64,000 nt of DNA from the sequence record OQ067374.1. One strand, given 5' to 3'. The notes under the pieces are model-generated. The model did not search any database. It saw nothing but the letters and a program-made list of their open reading frames with translations, and was not told the origin of the DNA. Origin of the DNA: Escherichia phage a20. The stretch's first letter is position 1; each line of letters starts with the position of its first letter. Positions 26,534-54,114 of the stretch are shown piece by piece. The position numbers and the translations under genes were made by a program.

Positions 26534-26793
26534 TTAAAATATTCTCGCAGTTGGTCAAATCCACCAATGTGACTTCCGTCAGGAGCAAACACTTGAGGCA
26601 TAGTCAATCCGACTTGTGATTCACGACCAAGCTTAACCAGAAGCTCAGCAATTTTCTCATCATCGAACACACCTTTTTCTGGCATAACATTAATGAATTC
26701 GAATGGCTGTTTCTTAACAGTCAGCAATCTTTTCGCATTATCACAGAAAACACAACGGTGAATAGTAGAGTCATACCCGTACACTTTAAACAT
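26530..26793 (-). CDS. nrdC: thioredoxin/glutaredoxin
   Basis: Track ORF 26530..26808; start set at MFKVYGYD (T4 NrdC N-terminus) with AAGGA upstream; CVFC active site. Confidence 0.9.
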   Translation of the reverse strand: MFKVYGYDSTIHRCVFCDNAKRLLTVKKQPFEFINVMPEKGVFDDEKIAELLVKLGRESQVGLTMPQVFAPDGSHIGGFDQLREYFK

Positions 26794-27199
26794 TATTTTT
26801 CCTTTCATCGATTAAATATGCAACACCAAATACAATACATGTAATAAAACCTGTGATACCGATAGAGAACATCAACACTGTACCAAAGAACCAAATCAGG
26901 TTATCTTTAGTAGTTTGTTTGATATCCATCTCACGAATTTCTATAGCTATCGTATCACCTTTATTCAGAAGCGTATAAAACGACGGTGATACACGCCTGT
27001 CAAAAACTCGTCCTTGCTCATCTTTATAGACGGCAATAAATTCTAATTTAGAATATTTTCCTGTAGATTGACCTGAAATTAATTCCACTACCTCCACAGG
27101 AATTACTTTAGTTTCCATGTAAGTATTCTGGCTGTTCCAAATGAATGGAATGATGGCAAAAACTAAAGCTGCAATAAAACAACGAAGGCTATATCTCAT
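26786..27199 (-). CDS. membrane protein
   Basis: 137 aa; N- and C-terminal hydrophobic helices. Confidence 0.5.
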   Translation of the reverse strand: MRYSLRCFIAALVFAIIPFIWNSQNTYMETKVIPVEVVELISGQSTGKYSKLEFIAVYKDEQGRVFDRRVSPSFYTLLNKGDTIAIEIREMDIKQTTKDNLIWFFGTVLMFSIGITGFITCIVFGVAYLIDERKNNV

Positions 27200-27504
27200 T
27201 ATAATGTTCTCTCAAATTTGTGGAAGCATTTACGGCATTTCAATTTCAAGTTATCAGTGGTCCAGTTAACCAGTTGGACTTGGATAGTTCCACATTCTGG
27301 GCATGGATGTTTTGCTGCCGATTTGGCAGCATTTTCACGTCGTTCAACCATTTTCATGATTTCGTTCCATGCCGGAGGAACGAACTCTTCTTCACCGTGG
27401 ATTTTATCTCGCTGAACAAATTCAATCTTTGAACTATCATCAATAAACTTAACCAAGTCATGATTAGTGCTCATATCAATATCCTCTAAAAGACGTAGTT
27501 TCAT
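27199..27504 (-). CDS. hypothetical Zn-ribbon protein
   Basis: 101 aa; CPECG...CRKC pair. Confidence 0.5.
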   Translation of the reverse strand: MKLRLLEDIDMSTNHDLVKFIDDSSKIEFVQRDKIHGEEEFVPPAWNEIMKMVERRENAAKSAAKHPCPECGTIQVQLVNWTTDNLKLKCRKCFHKFERTL

Positions 27505-28454
27505 TATAAAACCTCAATGGCATTTCGTAAACCATCCGCTTTCGCATTCAGAGCTTTTAACGATTTAGTTTGTTCTGCAATCTGGGCTTCGACTTCTTTC
27601 AGACGAGATTTGAGATATTCGCGTTCTTCTCTTAAGTTATCAACTTTTTCTGCTTTAGGCTCTTTAATAGGCTTAGGTTTATACGTATTAGGGTTCTTCA
27701 GTTTAATTTGAATTCGAGAACTGAATAACATTGAACCGTTATCTTCGGTTTCACTGTGTATTTCTACCACGTCCATGATTCTTAACATCATGCGAAGTTT
27801 ATAAGACAGCGAACGAACGGTTTTATTGTGCTTCTTAATTTCTTCAGCTTTCATGGTGCCGAGATTACGTGAGTAGTAATAAGGAACCTGAATATCAATT
27901 GATAATGATGCGGTACCATTACCGGTTGGTTTGAACACTGCAGTAACCCAATCTTTAGCATGAACTGTATTTGTACGATCATCGCCGCCTGTGAATAATT
28001 TACGAGAATGTTTAAAAAGCATATTCACTTGGTTATTGAATTCACAAGCAAATTTATCAGCAAATTTAGTTTCAGGAATGGTAGTTAACCAATCAGCCAA
28101 ATGAGTCTTTTTAACATCATTAACAATAGTGAATTCAACCAAATCGGTTTTAGATGTCACAGATTTAATAAAGCTCGGCTTCATAAAGTTTTTAATGTTA
28201 TCGCGAGCTACAGTAGAAGATAATAAACGAGAACGTTTGAACCATTGAAGCAACGTCCCTAACGAATGAGAATACGCATTTTGAGTATCTTTACAGATAT
28301 GATTTTCTTGGCCTATGTATGTACCAAAATCGCGAAGAATACCACTTACTACATCTCGGTGTGGAACATCAAATCCTAGTGCACCAGAAGCACGTTGGGC
28401 ATGAACGTTAGCGATAAGACCTGCAAAGTATTCAATGTAATGTGAACGTGTCAT
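27504..28454 (-). CDS. hypothetical protein with C-terminal coiled coil
   Basis: 316 aa; promoter cassette directly upstream. Confidence 0.55.
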   Translation of the reverse strand: MTRSHYIEYFAGLIANVHAQRASGALGFDVPHRDVVSGILRDFGTYIGQENHICKDTQNAYSHSLGTLLQWFKRSRLLSSTVARDNIKNFMKPSFIKSVTSKTDLVEFTIVNDVKKTHLADWLTTIPETKFADKFACEFNNQVNMLFKHSRKLFTGGDDRTNTVHAKDWVTAVFKPTGNGTASLSIDIQVPYYYSRNLGTMKAEEIKKHNKTVRSLSYKLRMMLRIMDVVEIHSETEDNGSMLFSSRIQIKLKNPNTYKPKPIKEPKAEKVDNLREEREYLKSRLKEVEAQIAEQTKSLKALNAKADGLRNAIEVL

Positions 28455-28482
28455 AATATTTTCCTCTCGTTAAGATAGATTC

Positions 28483-28512
28483 ATTATACTCCAACCATCC
28501 TTGGTTGTAAAC
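28483..28512 (-). promoter_or_regulatory. early-promoter-like cassette with spacer hairpin (PeSL-like)
   Basis: Minus strand: GTTTAC (plus 28507-28512), 18-bp spacer containing hairpin CAACCA-TCCT-TGGTTG, TATAAT (plus 28483-28488); SD and ATG of the 27504..28454 gene follow. Confidence 0.5.
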
Positions 28513-28516
28513 TATT

Positions 28517-29476
28517 TTATGATTTTAACGCATTCATTGCGTTAAAAAGTTTAGAATACTGCAACTGGAGATTCGTTACAACACTTTGAGCATCACGAAG
28601 CTTAGCTTGTGCTTTGTCAAGTTCAACAGACAGTTGGTCCATAGTGGCCTTGATTTGATTGTAACGGTAATCTTCGGCCGGAAGAAGGTCATTAGAAACA
28701 TTTAGTTTTACTGCAGACAGTTTGCACACATTTGGCAAACCTTTAAACATTGATTTACCCGAAGTAGAATAAGCACTTAGGACTTCGGCCTGTTCAATTG
28801 GGGTCCCAGTAAGCGATGCTTCAAACAATGCATTTTCCTTTTTAAGATTTTGATAATATTCGGAGTCTTTGTGCCACCATGGCGCAGGAACCTTTTTACC
28901 AATAGATACACGAGCCTGGATAGCGATATGGCCCTTATTCTTGATAGGGTCGATAATATTAAGCTCACGAGAATAAATTGCTTTAATCTGGTGGATATTA
29001 TCACCTAAAACTTCCAACGCTTGGTGGAATACACGAGCAACGTTATCATTCTTAGGTTTATACGTAAGAGTGAACTCGTTCTCACTGATAACCATGATTT
29101 CTAACTTATCGTAAGTATATTTCAAATGTTTCATGTTAATTGCTTGAGGACGAATACGAGAAGCAATGGCCATCAGATTGTTAAGGTTATTCCGGAACTG
29201 CTTAGCGAAATATTGTCCTTCACCACCAATACAAAAATTACGAAGTTTCTGTTTGGCTAATAAACGGCTGAACTCACCATTTTTAATGAACTCTTTAACG
29301 GGTGTGTTAGTAACGCATTCAAATTGAGTAAACTTACGAGAAGTAATCCCATAATATGAACAGATTTCCTCAATCTCTTCAGGAGTCTTTACAGGCATAC
29401 GGATAGGATTAGGTCCTGGAGTATATGCGTTCGAGGTAAATTCTTTGATAAGTTCTCTACGTGTAATAAAAGCCAT
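28517..29476 (-). CDS. hypothetical protein with C-terminal coiled coil
   Basis: 319 aa; same promoter cassette upstream. Confidence 0.55.
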   Translation of the reverse strand: MAFITRRELIKEFTSNAYTPGPNPIRMPVKTPEEIEEICSYYGITSRKFTQFECVTNTPVKEFIKNGEFSRLLAKQKLRNFCIGGEGQYFAKQFRNNLNNLMAIASRIRPQAINMKHLKYTYDKLEIMVISENEFTLTYKPKNDNVARVFHQALEVLGDNIHQIKAIYSRELNIIDPIKNKGHIAIQARVSIGKKVPAPWWHKDSEYYQNLKKENALFEASLTGTPIEQAEVLSAYSTSGKSMFKGLPNVCKLSAVKLNVSNDLLPAEDYRYNQIKATMDQLSVELDKAQAKLRDAQSVVTNLQLQYSKLFNAMNALKS

Positions 29477-29502
29477 TTTATATTCCTCATGTTGAAAAAT
29501 TT

Positions 29503-29532
29503 ATTATACTCCAACCATCCTTGGTTGTACAT
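29503..29532 (-). promoter_or_regulatory. early-promoter-like cassette with spacer hairpin (PeSL-like)
   Basis: Near-identical copy of the 28483-28512 element (TATAAT at plus 29503-29508, same CAACCA-TCCT-TGGTTG hairpin, -35 variant ATGTAC). Confidence 0.45.
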
Positions 29533-30527
29533 CATTCCTTAAGAAGTTTTACTACTTGAATAAGATTAGCTCGTTCTGTTTTATTTTTACCGTTTAAGCC
29601 TGCTAATCGTGAGATTTCATCGTCAGTCTGTTGAATAGTTACATTAAGTTCGTTAATCAAAGCTTCAAAGTATTTGATTTGCTCAGCATGTTTTGATTCA
29701 AATTTCTGAACCGGAATAACGTCTTGATTCAGTTCATCAATAAGGTCTTTAAGAGCATCTTCTTGGTTGATATCATATTCAACTTCTTTTATTTCTTCAA
29801 CGAGCTCGTCTTTATATCTAACGTCTTTTAGTCCTGGAGCTGGTCCTAAAATCTCTTCTTTAAGAGTACAAACATATCCAATACGATATCCAGTGCCGTC
29901 TCGCTTGATATCAACTTCGTCGATAAATCCACAATGTTTAAGACCAGAGCCGATTAGGTTAAAATATCCTTGACGTCGTCCTTCAAACGTTACACGAACT
30001 ACTAAGACGGTTTTGCCACTGACCTTTTGAAGCTCACATTTATAAAAGTCTGTTGAACCTGAATAACATGGATGAGTTTTAAAGTTCATCTGACGATCTA
30101 GACCCATTTGTAAGCGTGCTGATACGGCCATAAAACGTGTTTGGTTCTCGTTAAGATGAGCAACAATCCATTTCAAAGGCATTTTACACTGTTCACGACC
30201 GAACAAATCAGTACGTCCTAGATTACGCAGGATGTTGTTAGAGTTAATCATCGACAGAACGTTAAGTTTATTCAGCGCGCTGAAGATTCCATCAGCCATT
30301 GATTTTCCGTAACCTTTACACGCTTTAATAAGCGCTCGCGGCAGATTAGTATAGATTTCAGACGGCATATGAAAATCAAATTTACTAGTCAGTAATTGAT
30401 GAACTTGGATAGCAATTTGCTCATAATTAAGTGCTCTGCGATCATTATGGTCTTTAAACCACACTTTAATCTGTGAAGCACATAAACCGTTAATTTCATG
30501 TTTTACCGCATCAGATGTAATGCTCAT
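29532..30527 (-). CDS. hypothetical protein with C-terminal coiled coil
   Basis: 331 aa. Confidence 0.55.
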   Translation of the reverse strand: MSITSDAVKHEINGLCASQIKVWFKDHNDRRALNYEQIAIQVHQLLTSKFDFHMPSEIYTNLPRALIKACKGYGKSMADGIFSALNKLNVLSMINSNNILRNLGRTDLFGREQCKMPLKWIVAHLNENQTRFMAVSARLQMGLDRQMNFKTHPCYSGSTDFYKCELQKVSGKTVLVVRVTFEGRRQGYFNLIGSGLKHCGFIDEVDIKRDGTGYRIGYVCTLKEEILGPAPGLKDVRYKDELVEEIKEVEYDINQEDALKDLIDELNQDVIPVQKFESKHAEQIKYFEALINELNVTIQQTDDEISRLAGLNGKNKTERANLIQVVKLLKE

Positions 30528-30589
30528 AACTATTTCCTCAGATTGAATTGGAACTCAAAACCATTATAACCCGTCCTTGGGTAAAGCGT

Positions 30590-31117
30590 TTATGCGTGAA
30601 CCGTCTTTAAACGTTCTTCAAATTTCCGAAGAGTACTAATACGTTCTGCTTTCTGTTTTGTATAGTTTGCAATACGTTCTGAAGTGAGAGCGTATCGTTC
30701 GTTTACTGTTTCTTTCATGAAGTCAGGGATTTCACGAGAAGCTTTAATTTCATCAAACTTATCGAGTACTGCCTGGTCTTCAGCGATTAAATTTTCGTAC
30801 ATCTCGATATCTTTCTTGATAAACTCGATATCTTCCTGGGTTACTTTGGATAAACGAGACGCTTTATCCTTTTTGTACTGCTCGTTAGTTTCACGAGACC
30901 AGAATAATGTACGTTTTTTGTTAGTGTTTTTGTAGACTTCCACAATTCCAACTGAATCGATGATAGCAATCCAATTCCAGCGAGATTTGAAAATCTGACC
31001 TCCATCCACGGTAATCTCGTTACCATAAGCAACGTCATTAAAGAACTTGCTTTGTGCTTCAGATTTAAATTTACCGTCGTTATAATTTACCAGGTTGAAA
31101 ATATCTTTAGCGTTCAT
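30590..31117 (-). CDS. hypothetical protein
   Basis: 175 aa; GGAGGTAAAAC precedes the ATG. Confidence 0.55.
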   Translation of the reverse strand: MNAKDIFNLVNYNDGKFKSEAQSKFFNDVAYGNEITVDGGQIFKSRWNWIAIIDSVGIVEVYKNTNKKRTLFWSRETNEQYKKDKASRLSKVTQEDIEFIKKDIEMYENLIAEDQAVLDKFDEIKASREIPDFMKETVNERYALTSERIANYTKQKAERISTLRKFEERLKTVHA

Positions 31118-31144
31118 GTTTTACCTCCAGTAGTTGATAGGTCT

Positions 31145-31173
31145 ATAATAACATAACCATAGACCTTGTAAAC
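31145..31173 (-). promoter_or_regulatory. early-promoter-like element with hairpin
   Basis: Minus strand GTTTAC (plus 31168-31173), 17 bp, TATTAT (plus 31145-31150); inverted repeat AGGTCTAT/ATAGACCT spans the -10. Confidence 0.45.
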
Positions 31174-31175
31174 AA

Positions 31176-31463
31176 CTAAAAGAAACTTTTTTCGGTATTT
31201 TTTCCACTGAACCAAACAGACTTCGGTATTTTTTGTAATTTTTCAGATTTAAGTTTCTCTTCCTGTTCTTTCTTATATGCATCCTTGTCGTACTGGAACA
31301 ACTCTAGGGCATTCTTTTGTAGACGGTCTAAGGTAATTAAGGCTTTAGTTTTTCCTTTCAAGGAAGAGTCCTGGCGAACCTCCTCGCTATATTGCATCGT
31401 AGAACTAACCATACGATGAGCATACAGTTCGACTGCGGCTTTAATTTTTTGCATAAAATCCAT
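31176..31463 (-). CDS. hypothetical protein
   Basis: 95 aa ORF. Confidence 0.45.
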   Translation of the reverse strand: MDFMQKIKAAVELYAHRMVSSTMQYSEEVRQDSSLKGKTKALITLDRLQKNALELFQYDKDAYKKEQEEKLKSEKLQKIPKSVWFSGKNTEKSFF

Positions 31464-32603: not shown

Positions 32604-32620
32604 TTCGTTTCGATAGGTCT

Positions 32621-32649
32621 ATAATAACATATCCTAAAAGCATGTACAC
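32621..32649 (-). promoter_or_regulatory. promoter-like element (possible MotA-type)
   Basis: Minus strand GTGTAC...ATGCTTTTA (MotA-box-like) and TATTAT (plus 32621-32626) upstream of the ATPase gene. Confidence 0.35.
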
Positions 32650-32670
32650 TACTTTTTTAAATATTTTAAC

Positions 32671-32694
32671 CCCCTAAAGGGACCCGAAGGTCCC
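32671..32694 (-). terminator. terminator-like hairpin
   Basis: GGGACC-CGAA-GGTCCC (plus 32679-32694), tetraloop hairpin just downstream of the 32700..32966 gene; weak U-tract. Confidence 0.35.
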
Positions 32695-47207: not shown

Positions 47208-47237
47208 ACTATAACATAAACTTACTTAGATGTAAAT
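47208..47237 (-). promoter_or_regulatory. early-promoter-like element
   Basis: Minus strand ATTTAC (plus 47232-47237), 18 bp, TATAGT (plus 47208-47213). Confidence 0.4.
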
Positions 47238-47390
47238 TATTTCAACGTCACCTTTAGCTGCTTTATAACCTTCAGCCCAAGATACAACAGAGTTTTTATC
47301 TGAGGATTCAAATTCAGGCATTGGACTTTCACCAATATTCACACAGTATGTTTCTTCATTTTCATCGAACCAAATAATTAAAGTAGTCAT
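47226..47390 (-). CDS. hypothetical small protein (not on ORF track)
   Basis: 54 codons from ATG at 47390 with GGAGTAAACAAA upstream; hand translation MTTLIIWFDENEE... Confidence 0.3.
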   Translation of the reverse strand: MTTLIIWFDENEETYCVNIGESPMPEFESSDKNSVVSWAEGYKAAKGDVEIIYI

Positions 47391-47420: not shown

Positions 47421-47450
47421 ATAGTATCACCATCCTTGGTGCTTGTACAT
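47421..47450 (-). promoter_or_regulatory. early-promoter-like cassette with spacer hairpin (PeSL-like)
   Basis: TACTAT (plus 47421-47426) and ATGTAC flank hairpin CACCA-TCCT-TGGTG, a variant of the 28483 and 29503 hairpins. Confidence 0.4.
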
Positions 47451-53292: not shown

Positions 53293-54114
53293 TTAAGATT
53301 TCCAAACAGTATTCGCAGAGAAACGTTTTCCTTTTGACATAAACTGCTGAGTAGGTAACATGATTATGTTGGCCCAGTCTTTAGGAGCTATTTCTGTTAT
53401 TGTTCCTCTAATGTGGCCTGGCAGGTATGCTTTAATCATTTTGTCCGCACCTTGAAATCCTTTCACCTTGCTCCAGTCTATCTTCAACTTTGTGTTATTA
53501 GTAATAGTAGTTGTGCTAGCATATTGCTTCAGCAATTCTTCAAGAAACTGTTGTCGTGCTTTAGGTGGGATATAGTGCAAGTTTAACCCATACATCAAAT
53601 TATGTTTACCTAATCCTAAATAAATAATCAAAGGATATCTGTCCCAATACGGCAGAGTATCTTTATGTTTAGCATCATACACGTAAGTATAAATTTTGCC
53701 TGGCGTAGGCTTGACTACTTTATGACCTTTTACACTTTTCTTAATTGTTTCAACAAACCACTTAGATGATTTGTTGTTTACTGCTGCGCCTTCATTTCTA
53801 ATCTTTTCTCGTATTGAACTGCGAAACGAGTTTATCATCAGAAGTTGACGTTCTTGCTTATTGAGTTTATTTTTAGGTTTAGATTCAAGCGTTTCAATTT
53901 TCTGTGCAGTCTTAATAGATGATGCATATCTAGACATTGCAGATGTAAACGACGAGTATTTTATTCCTTTTGATTCTGCAAATGCTTTTGCAGTGATTCC
54001 TTTCTCTTTAGCTTTCTTGTATTCTAATCCTATCTCAATCCATTTTCTTTCATTCATAGACTGAGCAATCTTAGGGGCTTGTACGCCTTCAGATATAATT
54101 TGGAATATGCTCAT
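53293..54114 (-). CDS. 2: DNA end protector protein
   Basis: 273 aa; synteny and size match T4 gp2. Confidence 0.75.

Follow-up and report, generated by a model that had tools for sequence, protein, structure and literature searches.

We analyzed a stretch of 64,000 nucleotides (nt) from Escherichia phage a20 (OQ067374.1; the whole stretch is called the window below), in which the segment at 27.5-30.5 kb consists of three co-directional minus-strand open reading frames (ORFs) of 316, 319 and 331 amino acids (aa), designated W1 (27504-28454), W2 (28517-29476) and W3 (29532-30527); the names W4 and W6 are given to neighbouring genes. Our main finding is that W1, W2 and W3 are, as judged from their sequences, old and strongly diverged paralogs of one family, that each has a predicted promoter of its own, that W2 can be excised at directly repeated promoter cassettes, and that all three are non-essential and probably serve in counter-defence. 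We put the probability of this explanation as a whole at about three in four. Mechanistically, W1 and W2 would be transcribed from copies of one T4-type early promoter cassette, while W3 would use a homolog of the T4 middle promoter PnrdC.7; homologous recombination between the two early cassettes would excise W2 and leave a single hybrid, still functional-looking promoter. In the proteins, a variable N-terminal domain would bind a host immunity protein, and the coiled coil that ends each of them would oligomerise the inhibitor.

Three diverged members of one gene family

Megablast matched the region to 140 Mosigvirus-type records at 95-99% identity, its gene content is RB69-like, and the sequence identifies the source phage as a Mosigvirus, that is, an RB69-like T4-type phage. 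One flank of W1-W3 carries homologs of nrdD, endonuclease VII (gp49), nrdC and nrdC.2, and the other homologs of nrdC.8, nrdC.10 and nrdC.11; on this sequence evidence, the locus is the nrdC-mobD hyperplastic region of T-even phages. The initial annotation of this DNA, made from the sequence alone, had reported three consecutive ORFs of about 320 aa, and their positions and sizes were confirmed; each begins with an ATG preceded by a Shine-Dalgarno (SD) sequence.

W1 is an ortholog of nrdC.3: it matches phrog_1435 over its full length (residues 1-316, E 4e-105), its homologs carry PF26897, and nrdC.2 lies directly after it. The same phrog is matched by both nrdC.3 and nrdC.4 of T4. W1 is 75% identical to nrdC.3 of RB14 and 55% identical to that of T4; the RB14-type and T4-type alleles are only 60% identical to each other, and we therefore conclude that an nrdC.3 allele moved between genera. 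W2 belongs to DUF7235 (PF23882; 411 bits for a gathering cut-off of 30, E 3e-123, residues 15-318 of 319) and to phrog_2351, the same families as T4 NrdC.5, which itself scores 421 bits against DUF7235 (E 5e-126). W3 is nrdC.6-like, with a full-length match to phrog_2257 (E 3.5e-127), homologs that carry PF26899, and a position downstream of a PnrdC.7-type promoter; it is 33% identical to T4-type nrdC.6 and aligns with RB14 nrdC.6 at an hhalign probability of 99.8%. An exhaustive representative search of 1.84 billion proteins returned only 6 clusters for the W3 family and added no diversity, and a scan of IMG/VR with the nrdC.3/4 alignment found only 7 loci.

All three ORFs end, as initially reported, in a coiled-coil-like segment, of about 50 aa. 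Coiled coils were called with a home-made score of heptad a/d hydrophobicity, compared with the 95th percentile of shuffled sequences, and were taken to need heptad periodicity over at least four heptads, a predicted helix and no proline; the C-termini have these properties by the heptad score, together with helices in AlphaFold2 (AF2) models of W1 and W3. The segment of W1 (aa 267-316; 27507-27656, minus strand) scored 0.82 for a shuffle percentile of 0.60, and that of W2 (aa 267-319; 28520-28678, minus strand) 0.90 for 0.57. The helical region of W3 (aa 281-331; 29535-29687, minus strand) lies above threshold at residues 281-309 and is interrupted at GLNGKN. The threshold was exceeded only at the C-termini, W1 having one additional internal helix (aa 203-231); scored in the same way, the neighbouring W4 and W6 proteins showed no such segment. 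The coiled coil of W2 resembles that of T4 NrdC.5 (LxxQxSKLxNAxNAL).

The N-terminal domains, which had been described as unrelated, turned out to be remote homologs, detected only by profile methods. An apparent merging of the families by hhalign and by iterative hidden Markov models was rejected as an artefact of a chimera, P0033, and of mutually attracting coiled coils. P0033 (contigs up to 167 kb) is a naturally occurring nrdC.5::nrdC.3 fusion, a chimeric ORF in which nrdC.5 residues ~135-270 are joined in frame to nrdC.3 from ...VNMLFKHARKLF onward; to judge from its sequence, it is the product of a deletion between two paralogs that removed nrdC.4. The profile comparison was repeated with P0033 excluded and the last 60 aa trimmed, and with profiles enriched with the loci of T4, RB14, IME08, ABTNLsp5, X20, UTI-K4 and IMG/VR contigs. 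Aligning the three families together with MAFFT put the motifs out of register, and the result was not used as a profile.

With trimmed profiles, hhalign linked nrdC.3 to nrdC.4 (probability 97.6%, E 3e-12), the W2 family to the T4-type nrdC.5 family (89%, E 2e-6, compared with 98% and E 1.5e-13 at full length), and the nrdC.3/4 group to a group made up of W2, nrdC.5, IME08 orf82 and X20 gp085 (95%, E 4.8e-8, over 188 collinear columns). The alignment is anchored by an N-terminal TRxxxIxxF motif and by two further motifs, S(R)LLSxxxARxxLxNF (motif 1) and FxxxFxxNxxxLxxxAxKL (motif 2). The W3/nrdC.6 family taken alone reached 89% at full length (E 2e-6). It is bridged to the others by a 332-aa family found at the same locus in Karamvirus (phrog_31182), which matches nrdC.6/W3 at 88% and nrdC.3/4/5 at 59-75%; W3/nrdC.6 merged with this family and trimmed gave 95% against nrdC.3/4/5 (E 3.9e-8) and 94% against nrdC.3/4 alone (E 1.5e-7). 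Controls with reversed profiles gave E values of 0.1-0.6, and those with unrelated neighbour proteins 0.02-0.6. Weak collinear cross-matches also join phrogs 1435, 2351, 26858, 33957, 23608, 12512 and 31182, all of which comprise proteins of ~300-350 aa encoded at this locus. From the trimmed profile links and the negative controls we therefore conclude that W1, W2 and W3 are diverged paralogs, in a family that also appears to take in T4 nrdC.4 and several genes of ~330 aa that other T4-like genera carry at this locus. Its members would share one layout, in which a helical N-terminal part bearing both conserved motifs is followed by a small beta region, then a linker and finally a coiled coil of ~50 aa.

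Several observations weigh against common descent. Direct pairwise BLASTP of W1, W2 and W3 found no similarity; trimmed and without the bridge, the W3/nrdC.6 family falls to 16% (E 1.6e-3); and the figure of 95% for W3 hinges on merging two families that, once trimmed, are themselves only weakly linked (E 0.011), so that, within a family delimited by sequence profiles, the place of W3 is the least secure of the three. Structure prediction helps little, as the AF2 models are poor, with a mean predicted local distance difference test (pLDDT) of 52 for W1 (29-sequence alignment) and 47 for W3 (5 sequences). For this reason only the order of secondary structure elements was taken from these low-pLDDT models. 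That order is alike in the two proteins, where six helices occupy the part up to residue ~150 and a beta-hairpin at 162-179 leads on to a helix, two strands, a linker and the C-terminal helix or helices. The last part is a long helix at 275-315 in W1 (pLDDT 66-79) and a series of broken helices within 255-330 in W3 (281-294, 302-312 and 316-330). Foldseek against BFVD returned low template-modelling-score matches to other T4-like phage proteins of ~300-370 aa, and sequence searches of PDB chains yielded no significant homolog (lowest E 0.0024; one 20.7-bit match was judged spurious).

These weaknesses invite the view that W1-W3 are unrelated ORFs, alike only since accessory proteins of such size often end in an amphipathic helix, and that their cassettes are alike only as strong near-consensus early promoters. 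The failure of pairwise BLAST fits it, as do the assignment of W1, W2 and W3 to separate PHROGs and Pfam families and the artefactual origin of the early apparent link; it does not account for trimmed profile-profile probabilities of 94-98% with collinear alignments and negative reversed controls, nor for two features of the cassettes described below, an identical 19-nt spacer that lies outside any promoter consensus and differs from the spacers of other early promoters in the window, and a crossover inside the cassette in phage JM10. We consider it very improbable, and retain the paralogous relationship.

The locus of other genera offers a further observation on rates of change. In Jiaodavirus, Ursula, Karamvirus and Winklervirus, a ~260-aa gene (65-75% identity) adjoins a ~330-aa gene; the ~330-aa genes are almost unrecognisably divergent between genera, each falling in a different PHROG, which indicates extreme local rate heterogeneity. 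The ~260-aa neighbour and the ORFs of Ac42 are unrelated to the W1-W3 family, and were used as negative controls.

Promoter cassettes and the loss of W2

The near-identical cassettes that the initial annotation placed upstream of the first two genes were recovered at 28474-28516 and 29494-29536; over 43 nt they are 86% identical, and they agree throughout a core of 27 nt. Their arrangement had to be corrected, in that the hairpin does not flank the promoter but falls within its spacer. There are exactly two occurrences of the 19-nt spacer CAACCAAGGATGGTTGGAG in the 64 kb, for 0 expected from shuffles, and no other minus-strand sequence of the region matches a sigma-70-type promoter as well as the two cassettes do. 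Cassette 1 (28455-28516, minus strand; 11/12 match) is the predicted T4-type early promoter of W1, with a -35 TTTACA at 28511-28506, a 17-nt spacer, a -10 TATAAT at 28488-28483, a predicted transcription start at about 28476 and the SD sequence GAGAGGAAAA ahead of the ATG. Cassette 2 (29477-29531, minus strand; 10/12 match) is the predicted early promoter of W2; its -35 TGTACA (29531-29526) abuts the stop codon of W3, and is followed by a 17-nt spacer, with the hairpin at 29512-29527, and by a -10 TATAAT at 29508-29503. In both cases an SD sequence and an ATG stand 20-30 nt downstream of the promoter. On the coding strand, one cassette reads ...TAA AATA GTTTACAACCAAGGATGGTTGGAGTATAAT ... GAGAGGAAAATATT ATG and the other ...TGA TGTACAACCAAGGATGGTTGGAGTATAAT ... 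ATGAGGAATATAAA ATG.

W3 is preceded by a different element (30563-30589, minus strand), identified by comparison with T4, RB14 and IME08 as a homolog of PnrdC.7, a T4 middle promoter whose start site has been mapped at 53325 (Hinton 2010, PMC2988021, Table 1). It comprises a MotA-box-like CGCTTTA (30588-30582), an imperfect AGGA-loop hairpin (30582-30569) and a -10 TATAAT (30568-30563). Its layout, CGCTTTA-N13-TATAAT, agrees with a MotA box about 12 +/- 1 bp before the -10 and, with the homology to a mapped promoter, makes it a predicted MotA-dependent middle promoter. The window element ACGCTTTACCCAAGGACGGGTTATAAT aligns with T4 PnrdC.7 CCGCTTTATACCAAGGATGGTATAAT, both having a MotA-box-like GCTTTA, a -10 and an AGGA-loop hairpin; it differs in that it stands directly ahead of the nrdC.6-like gene, with the nrdC.7 homolog elsewhere, and in that its hairpin has one mismatch. 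The same element is also a third, degenerate relative of the cassette, placed ahead of the third gene, and each of W1, W2 and W3 would have its own promoter. As to the nrdC.7 homolog, it is a 137-aa membrane-protein gene at 26786-27199 (minus strand; 40% identity to RB14 nrdC.7, E 1e-24), which occupies the position of nrdC.1, between nrdC.2 and nrdC; relative to T4 it is displaced, and the PnrdC.7-type promoter has remained upstream of W3.

W2 stands between the two early cassettes, which form direct repeats at a distance of 1020 nt, and exactly this gene is missing from phage JM10. Its junction carries one hybrid cassette, with the W1-side flank on one side and the 3' end of W3 on the other, and the crossover lies within the shared 27-nt core. 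A 261-nt junction probe found the W2-less junction contiguous in 21 of 155 Mosigvirus-type records, JM10 included (90.6-100% identity), and split in the remaining ones; in agreement with this count, W2 is present in 132 records and a Mosig-type W3 in about 152.

The polymorphism could be read in either direction. Most simply, the event documented here is a loss of W2, not a gain. The order nrdC.6-nrdC.5-(nrdC.4)-nrdC.3 is common to Mosigvirus, Tequatrovirus and Dhakavirus, with two to four such genes at the locus across genera, and therefore the array is old and predates both the split of the genera and these particular cassettes. On the opposite reading, the W2-less state would be ancestral in Mosigvirus, and W2 would have integrated between W3 and W1 via the cassette, for example as a mini-circle of the promoter-early stem-loop (PeSL) type known from T4-type phages (Arbiol 2010, PMC2839356; Comeau 2014, PMC4122927). 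Direct repeats around W2 are what an integrated mini-circle should leave, and the W2-less junction is found in ESCO47, the most divergent Mosig-type phage (90.6% identity). A third point in favour comes from phage moha (locus L018, 2699-3000). There, as in Dhakavirus, the homologs of W3 and W2 are separated by an additional gene of 66 aa, and the upstream repeat continues into a non-coding relic (AATGAATGCATTAAAATCATAA), derived from the 3' end of a W2-type gene, directly before the cassette; from its sequence this relic is the footprint of a duplication, although it could also be cited as that of an integration. Yet W2-less records are a minority, and Tequatrovirus and Dhakavirus also carry an nrdC.5-family gene between nrdC.6 and nrdC.4/nrdC.3, so that an ancestral W2 with recurrent deletion is the simplest account. 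Accretion is rather unlikely in our view. Of the initial proposal, a cassette-mediated accretion of a diversified protein family, the single family and the role of cassettes as recombination substrates are upheld, while loss rather than accretion is what the genomes document.

Comparison across relatives, which the initial annotation had called for, confirmed that the locus is not invariant, since copy number varies between two and four, nrdC.3 alleles have been exchanged between genera, nrdC.5 and nrdC.3 have fused and W2 has been lost. To these are added the extra small gene of moha and a frameshifted W3 in ChristianSchoenbein (Bas46; locus L020, 3448-4445), whose W3 homolog (96% nt identity) has a 2-nt insertion or deletion (indel) after codon 47 and is annotated as two ORFs of 85 and 239 aa; it is either a pseudogene or a sequencing error.

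The cassettes resemble the published PeSLs in most respects. Both are short composite elements, with a strong sigma-70-type promoter, a stem-loop, an SD sequence and an ATG, lying between non-essential ORFs; in both, copies flank single ORFs, and close relatives differ where recombination has removed or swapped the ORF. The window cassettes fit the T-even promoter consensus given for PeSLs, TTTACW-N17-TAYWAT (PMC2839356, PMC4122927), and PeSLs have been marked at ~43-51 kb of PST/T4, which corresponds to this region (Comeau 2014, PMC4122927). As with PeSLs, several close copies are found in the hyperplastic region (28.5, 29.5 and 30.6 kb, the last degenerate), and the indel crossovers between relatives fall within the cassette. 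The stem-loop is what differs: in PeSLs it lies upstream of the promoter and is terminating, whereas here it is inside the -35/-10 spacer, short, devoid of a U-tract and not predicted to be a terminator. Its stem, CCA...TGG around an AGGA loop, is also distinct from the published AGNA/TCNT and GGGG/CCCC stems, and, unlike in PeSLs, the stop codon of each upstream gene abuts the -35 element. By analogy, we regard the window cassettes as a case of PeSL-type modular shuffling, a model that is published and not new.

Look-alike promoters are not restricted to W1 and W2. A second pair of early promoters, at 31136-31177 and 32612-32653 (minus strand; 81% identical over 42 nt), sits upstream of W4, the nrdC.8 homolog (30590-31117, minus strand; 84% identical to RB14 NrdC.8), and of W6, the nrdC.10 homolog; the block in general is therefore marked by repeated cassettes. 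Just upstream of the W6 promoter, at ~32670-32690 (minus strand), a stable hairpin of the C(UUCG)G type GGGGACCTTCGGGTCCC is followed by TTT, and is likely a terminator or stability element of the gene upstream of that promoter. At the other end of the array, a consensus early promoter GTTTACGAAATGCCATTGAGGTTTTATAAT (27503-27531, minus strand) is embedded in the final codons of W1, its -10 overlapping the stop codon of W1 and the start of nrdC.2.

A hairpin within the promoter spacer

The spacer of the cassette 1 promoter contains a hairpin, CAACCA-AGGA-TGGTTG (28492-28507, minus strand), with a stem of 6 bp and an RNA deltaG of -5.3 kcal/mol. A role as intrinsic terminator was rejected because no U-tract follows it and the stem is weak; a terminator scan of the minus strand between W1 and W3 found nothing terminator-like. 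Also considered was a RegB target, whose GGAG stands after the hairpin in some copies but not in others.

Seven distinct versions of the hairpin were compared: one shared by the W1 and W2 copies of the window, the W3 copy, a copy at 47428, the T4 copies upstream of nrdC.3, nrdC.4 and nrdC.7, and the IME08 copy upstream of nrdC.4. They share an invariant CA-AGGA-TG core and have differing but complementary outer stems. The copy at 47428-47441 (minus strand) reads CACCA-AGGA-TGGTG and is found a long way from the nrdC block, in front of a 54-aa ORF (47226-47390), where it occupies the spacer of an early-promoter-like sequence (TGTACA...TACTAT).

A function for the spacer hairpin is possible on these grounds, and raises the question of whether the cassette is kept mainly for this stem-AAGGAU-stem element, which could serve as a protein target or, in read-through transcripts, as a signal for RNA processing or stability; recombination would then be a side effect of the sequence being repeated. 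In the seven versions, drawn from Mosigvirus, Tequatrovirus and Dhakavirus, the loop and closing pairs do not vary, while the stems change in a compensatory manner: 90.5% of the cells are paired, for 21-43% in slid controls, 4 of 6 pairs are compensatory, and none of 500 shuffles reached the score. AGGA-loop hairpins with a stem of at least 5 bp occur 15 times in 207 kb, compared with 1-7 times for control loops; all 14 of the promoter-type ones are on the gene-sense strand, and the copy at 47428-47441 stands in an unrelated early promoter. These figures are tempered by an ascertainment bias, as most instances come from a scan that required a stem, and by the shared ancestry of homologous positions in related phages, which are not independent. 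Moreover, the stem is weak and lacks a U-tract, an Rfam scan of 27-33 kb gave no match, and AGGA near -22 may simply be part of the T4 early-promoter consensus. The idea is also compatible with a recombination role of the cassette. We hold it to be a reasonable possibility, though clearly the less probable one, and continue to view the cassettes as promoters at which W2 is recombined.

Relation to anti-defence genes

Several T-even genes counteract bacterial defence systems, Pin, directed against Lon, being an example. Closest to the present locus, T4 NrdC.5 (DUF7235) restores infection and plating on cells bearing the sirtuin defence Dsr1 (Srikant 2022, PMC9391042). Among its neighbours, gp49.2 blocks OLD (PMC13096335), NrdC.1 blocks Septu (bioRxiv 10.1101/2025.11.20.689424), and the 175-aa Bas37_0203, which by position and length is an ortholog of NrdC.8 and thus a member of the W4 family, blocks Druantia III (2025 preprint, bioRxiv 10.1101/2025.11.20.689424). 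Given these neighbours, we place W1-W3 within an anti-defence island: they share with such T-even islands an 8-kb block of early, dispensable and rapidly varying genes, with the difference that defence targets have been assigned to gp49.2, NrdC.1 and the gene at the NrdC.8 position, and none to nrdC.3, nrdC.4, nrdC.6 or the Mosigvirus copies. In the T4 and Bas37 transposon maps, obtained by HIDEN-SEQ, nrdC.3-.6 are non-essential (bioRxiv 10.1101/2025.11.20.689424). The resemblance is closest for W2, which has the same Pfam and PHROG families as T4 NrdC.5, the same position downstream of an nrdC.6-type gene, the same early and non-essential character and a similar coiled coil.

By analogy, a counter-defence role of W1-W3 is most likely. 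Set against this are the identity of only ~23-25% between W2 and T4 NrdC.5, anti-Dsr1 activity having been shown for the T4 protein only; the fact that the experiments concern T4 homologs and neighbours; the derivation of promoter activity from sequence and T4 homology; and the absence of nrdC.3-.6 from the genes that HIDEN-SEQ marked as conditionally essential on the strains singled out in the text of that study (bioRxiv 10.1101/2025.11.20.689424). More speculatively, nrdC.3, nrdC.4, nrdC.5/DUF7235, nrdC.6 and the ~330-aa genes of the locus might constitute one fast-evolving modular counter-defence family, with a variable head and a conserved stalk, in which each paralog or allele would be tuned to a different host immune system, and which would be reshuffled via cassettes whose covarying AAGGAU-loop hairpin would act as a functional recombination or RNA signal; we offer this extension tentatively, and think it less probable than not by a good measure.

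The cassette mechanism and the genes themselves were already known. What may be new is the superfamily link between nrdC.3,.4,.5 and.6, the spacer hairpin with covarying stems, and the clean presence/absence polymorphism of W2 at a cassette. In a third T-even genus, the locus provides a clean example from nature of how promoter cassettes act as portable recombination sites for adding or removing single, self-expressed accessory genes, and the states before and after the loss of W2 are both found among sequenced isolates. The family also brings four T4 genes of unknown function together with NrdC.5, the one member having a phenotype (anti-Dsr1), and this grouping yields a counter-defence hypothesis for nrdC.3, nrdC.4, nrdC.6 and their Mosigvirus counterparts. 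For phage therapy, the presence or absence of W2 may mark host-range differences among near-identical Mosigvirus isolates.

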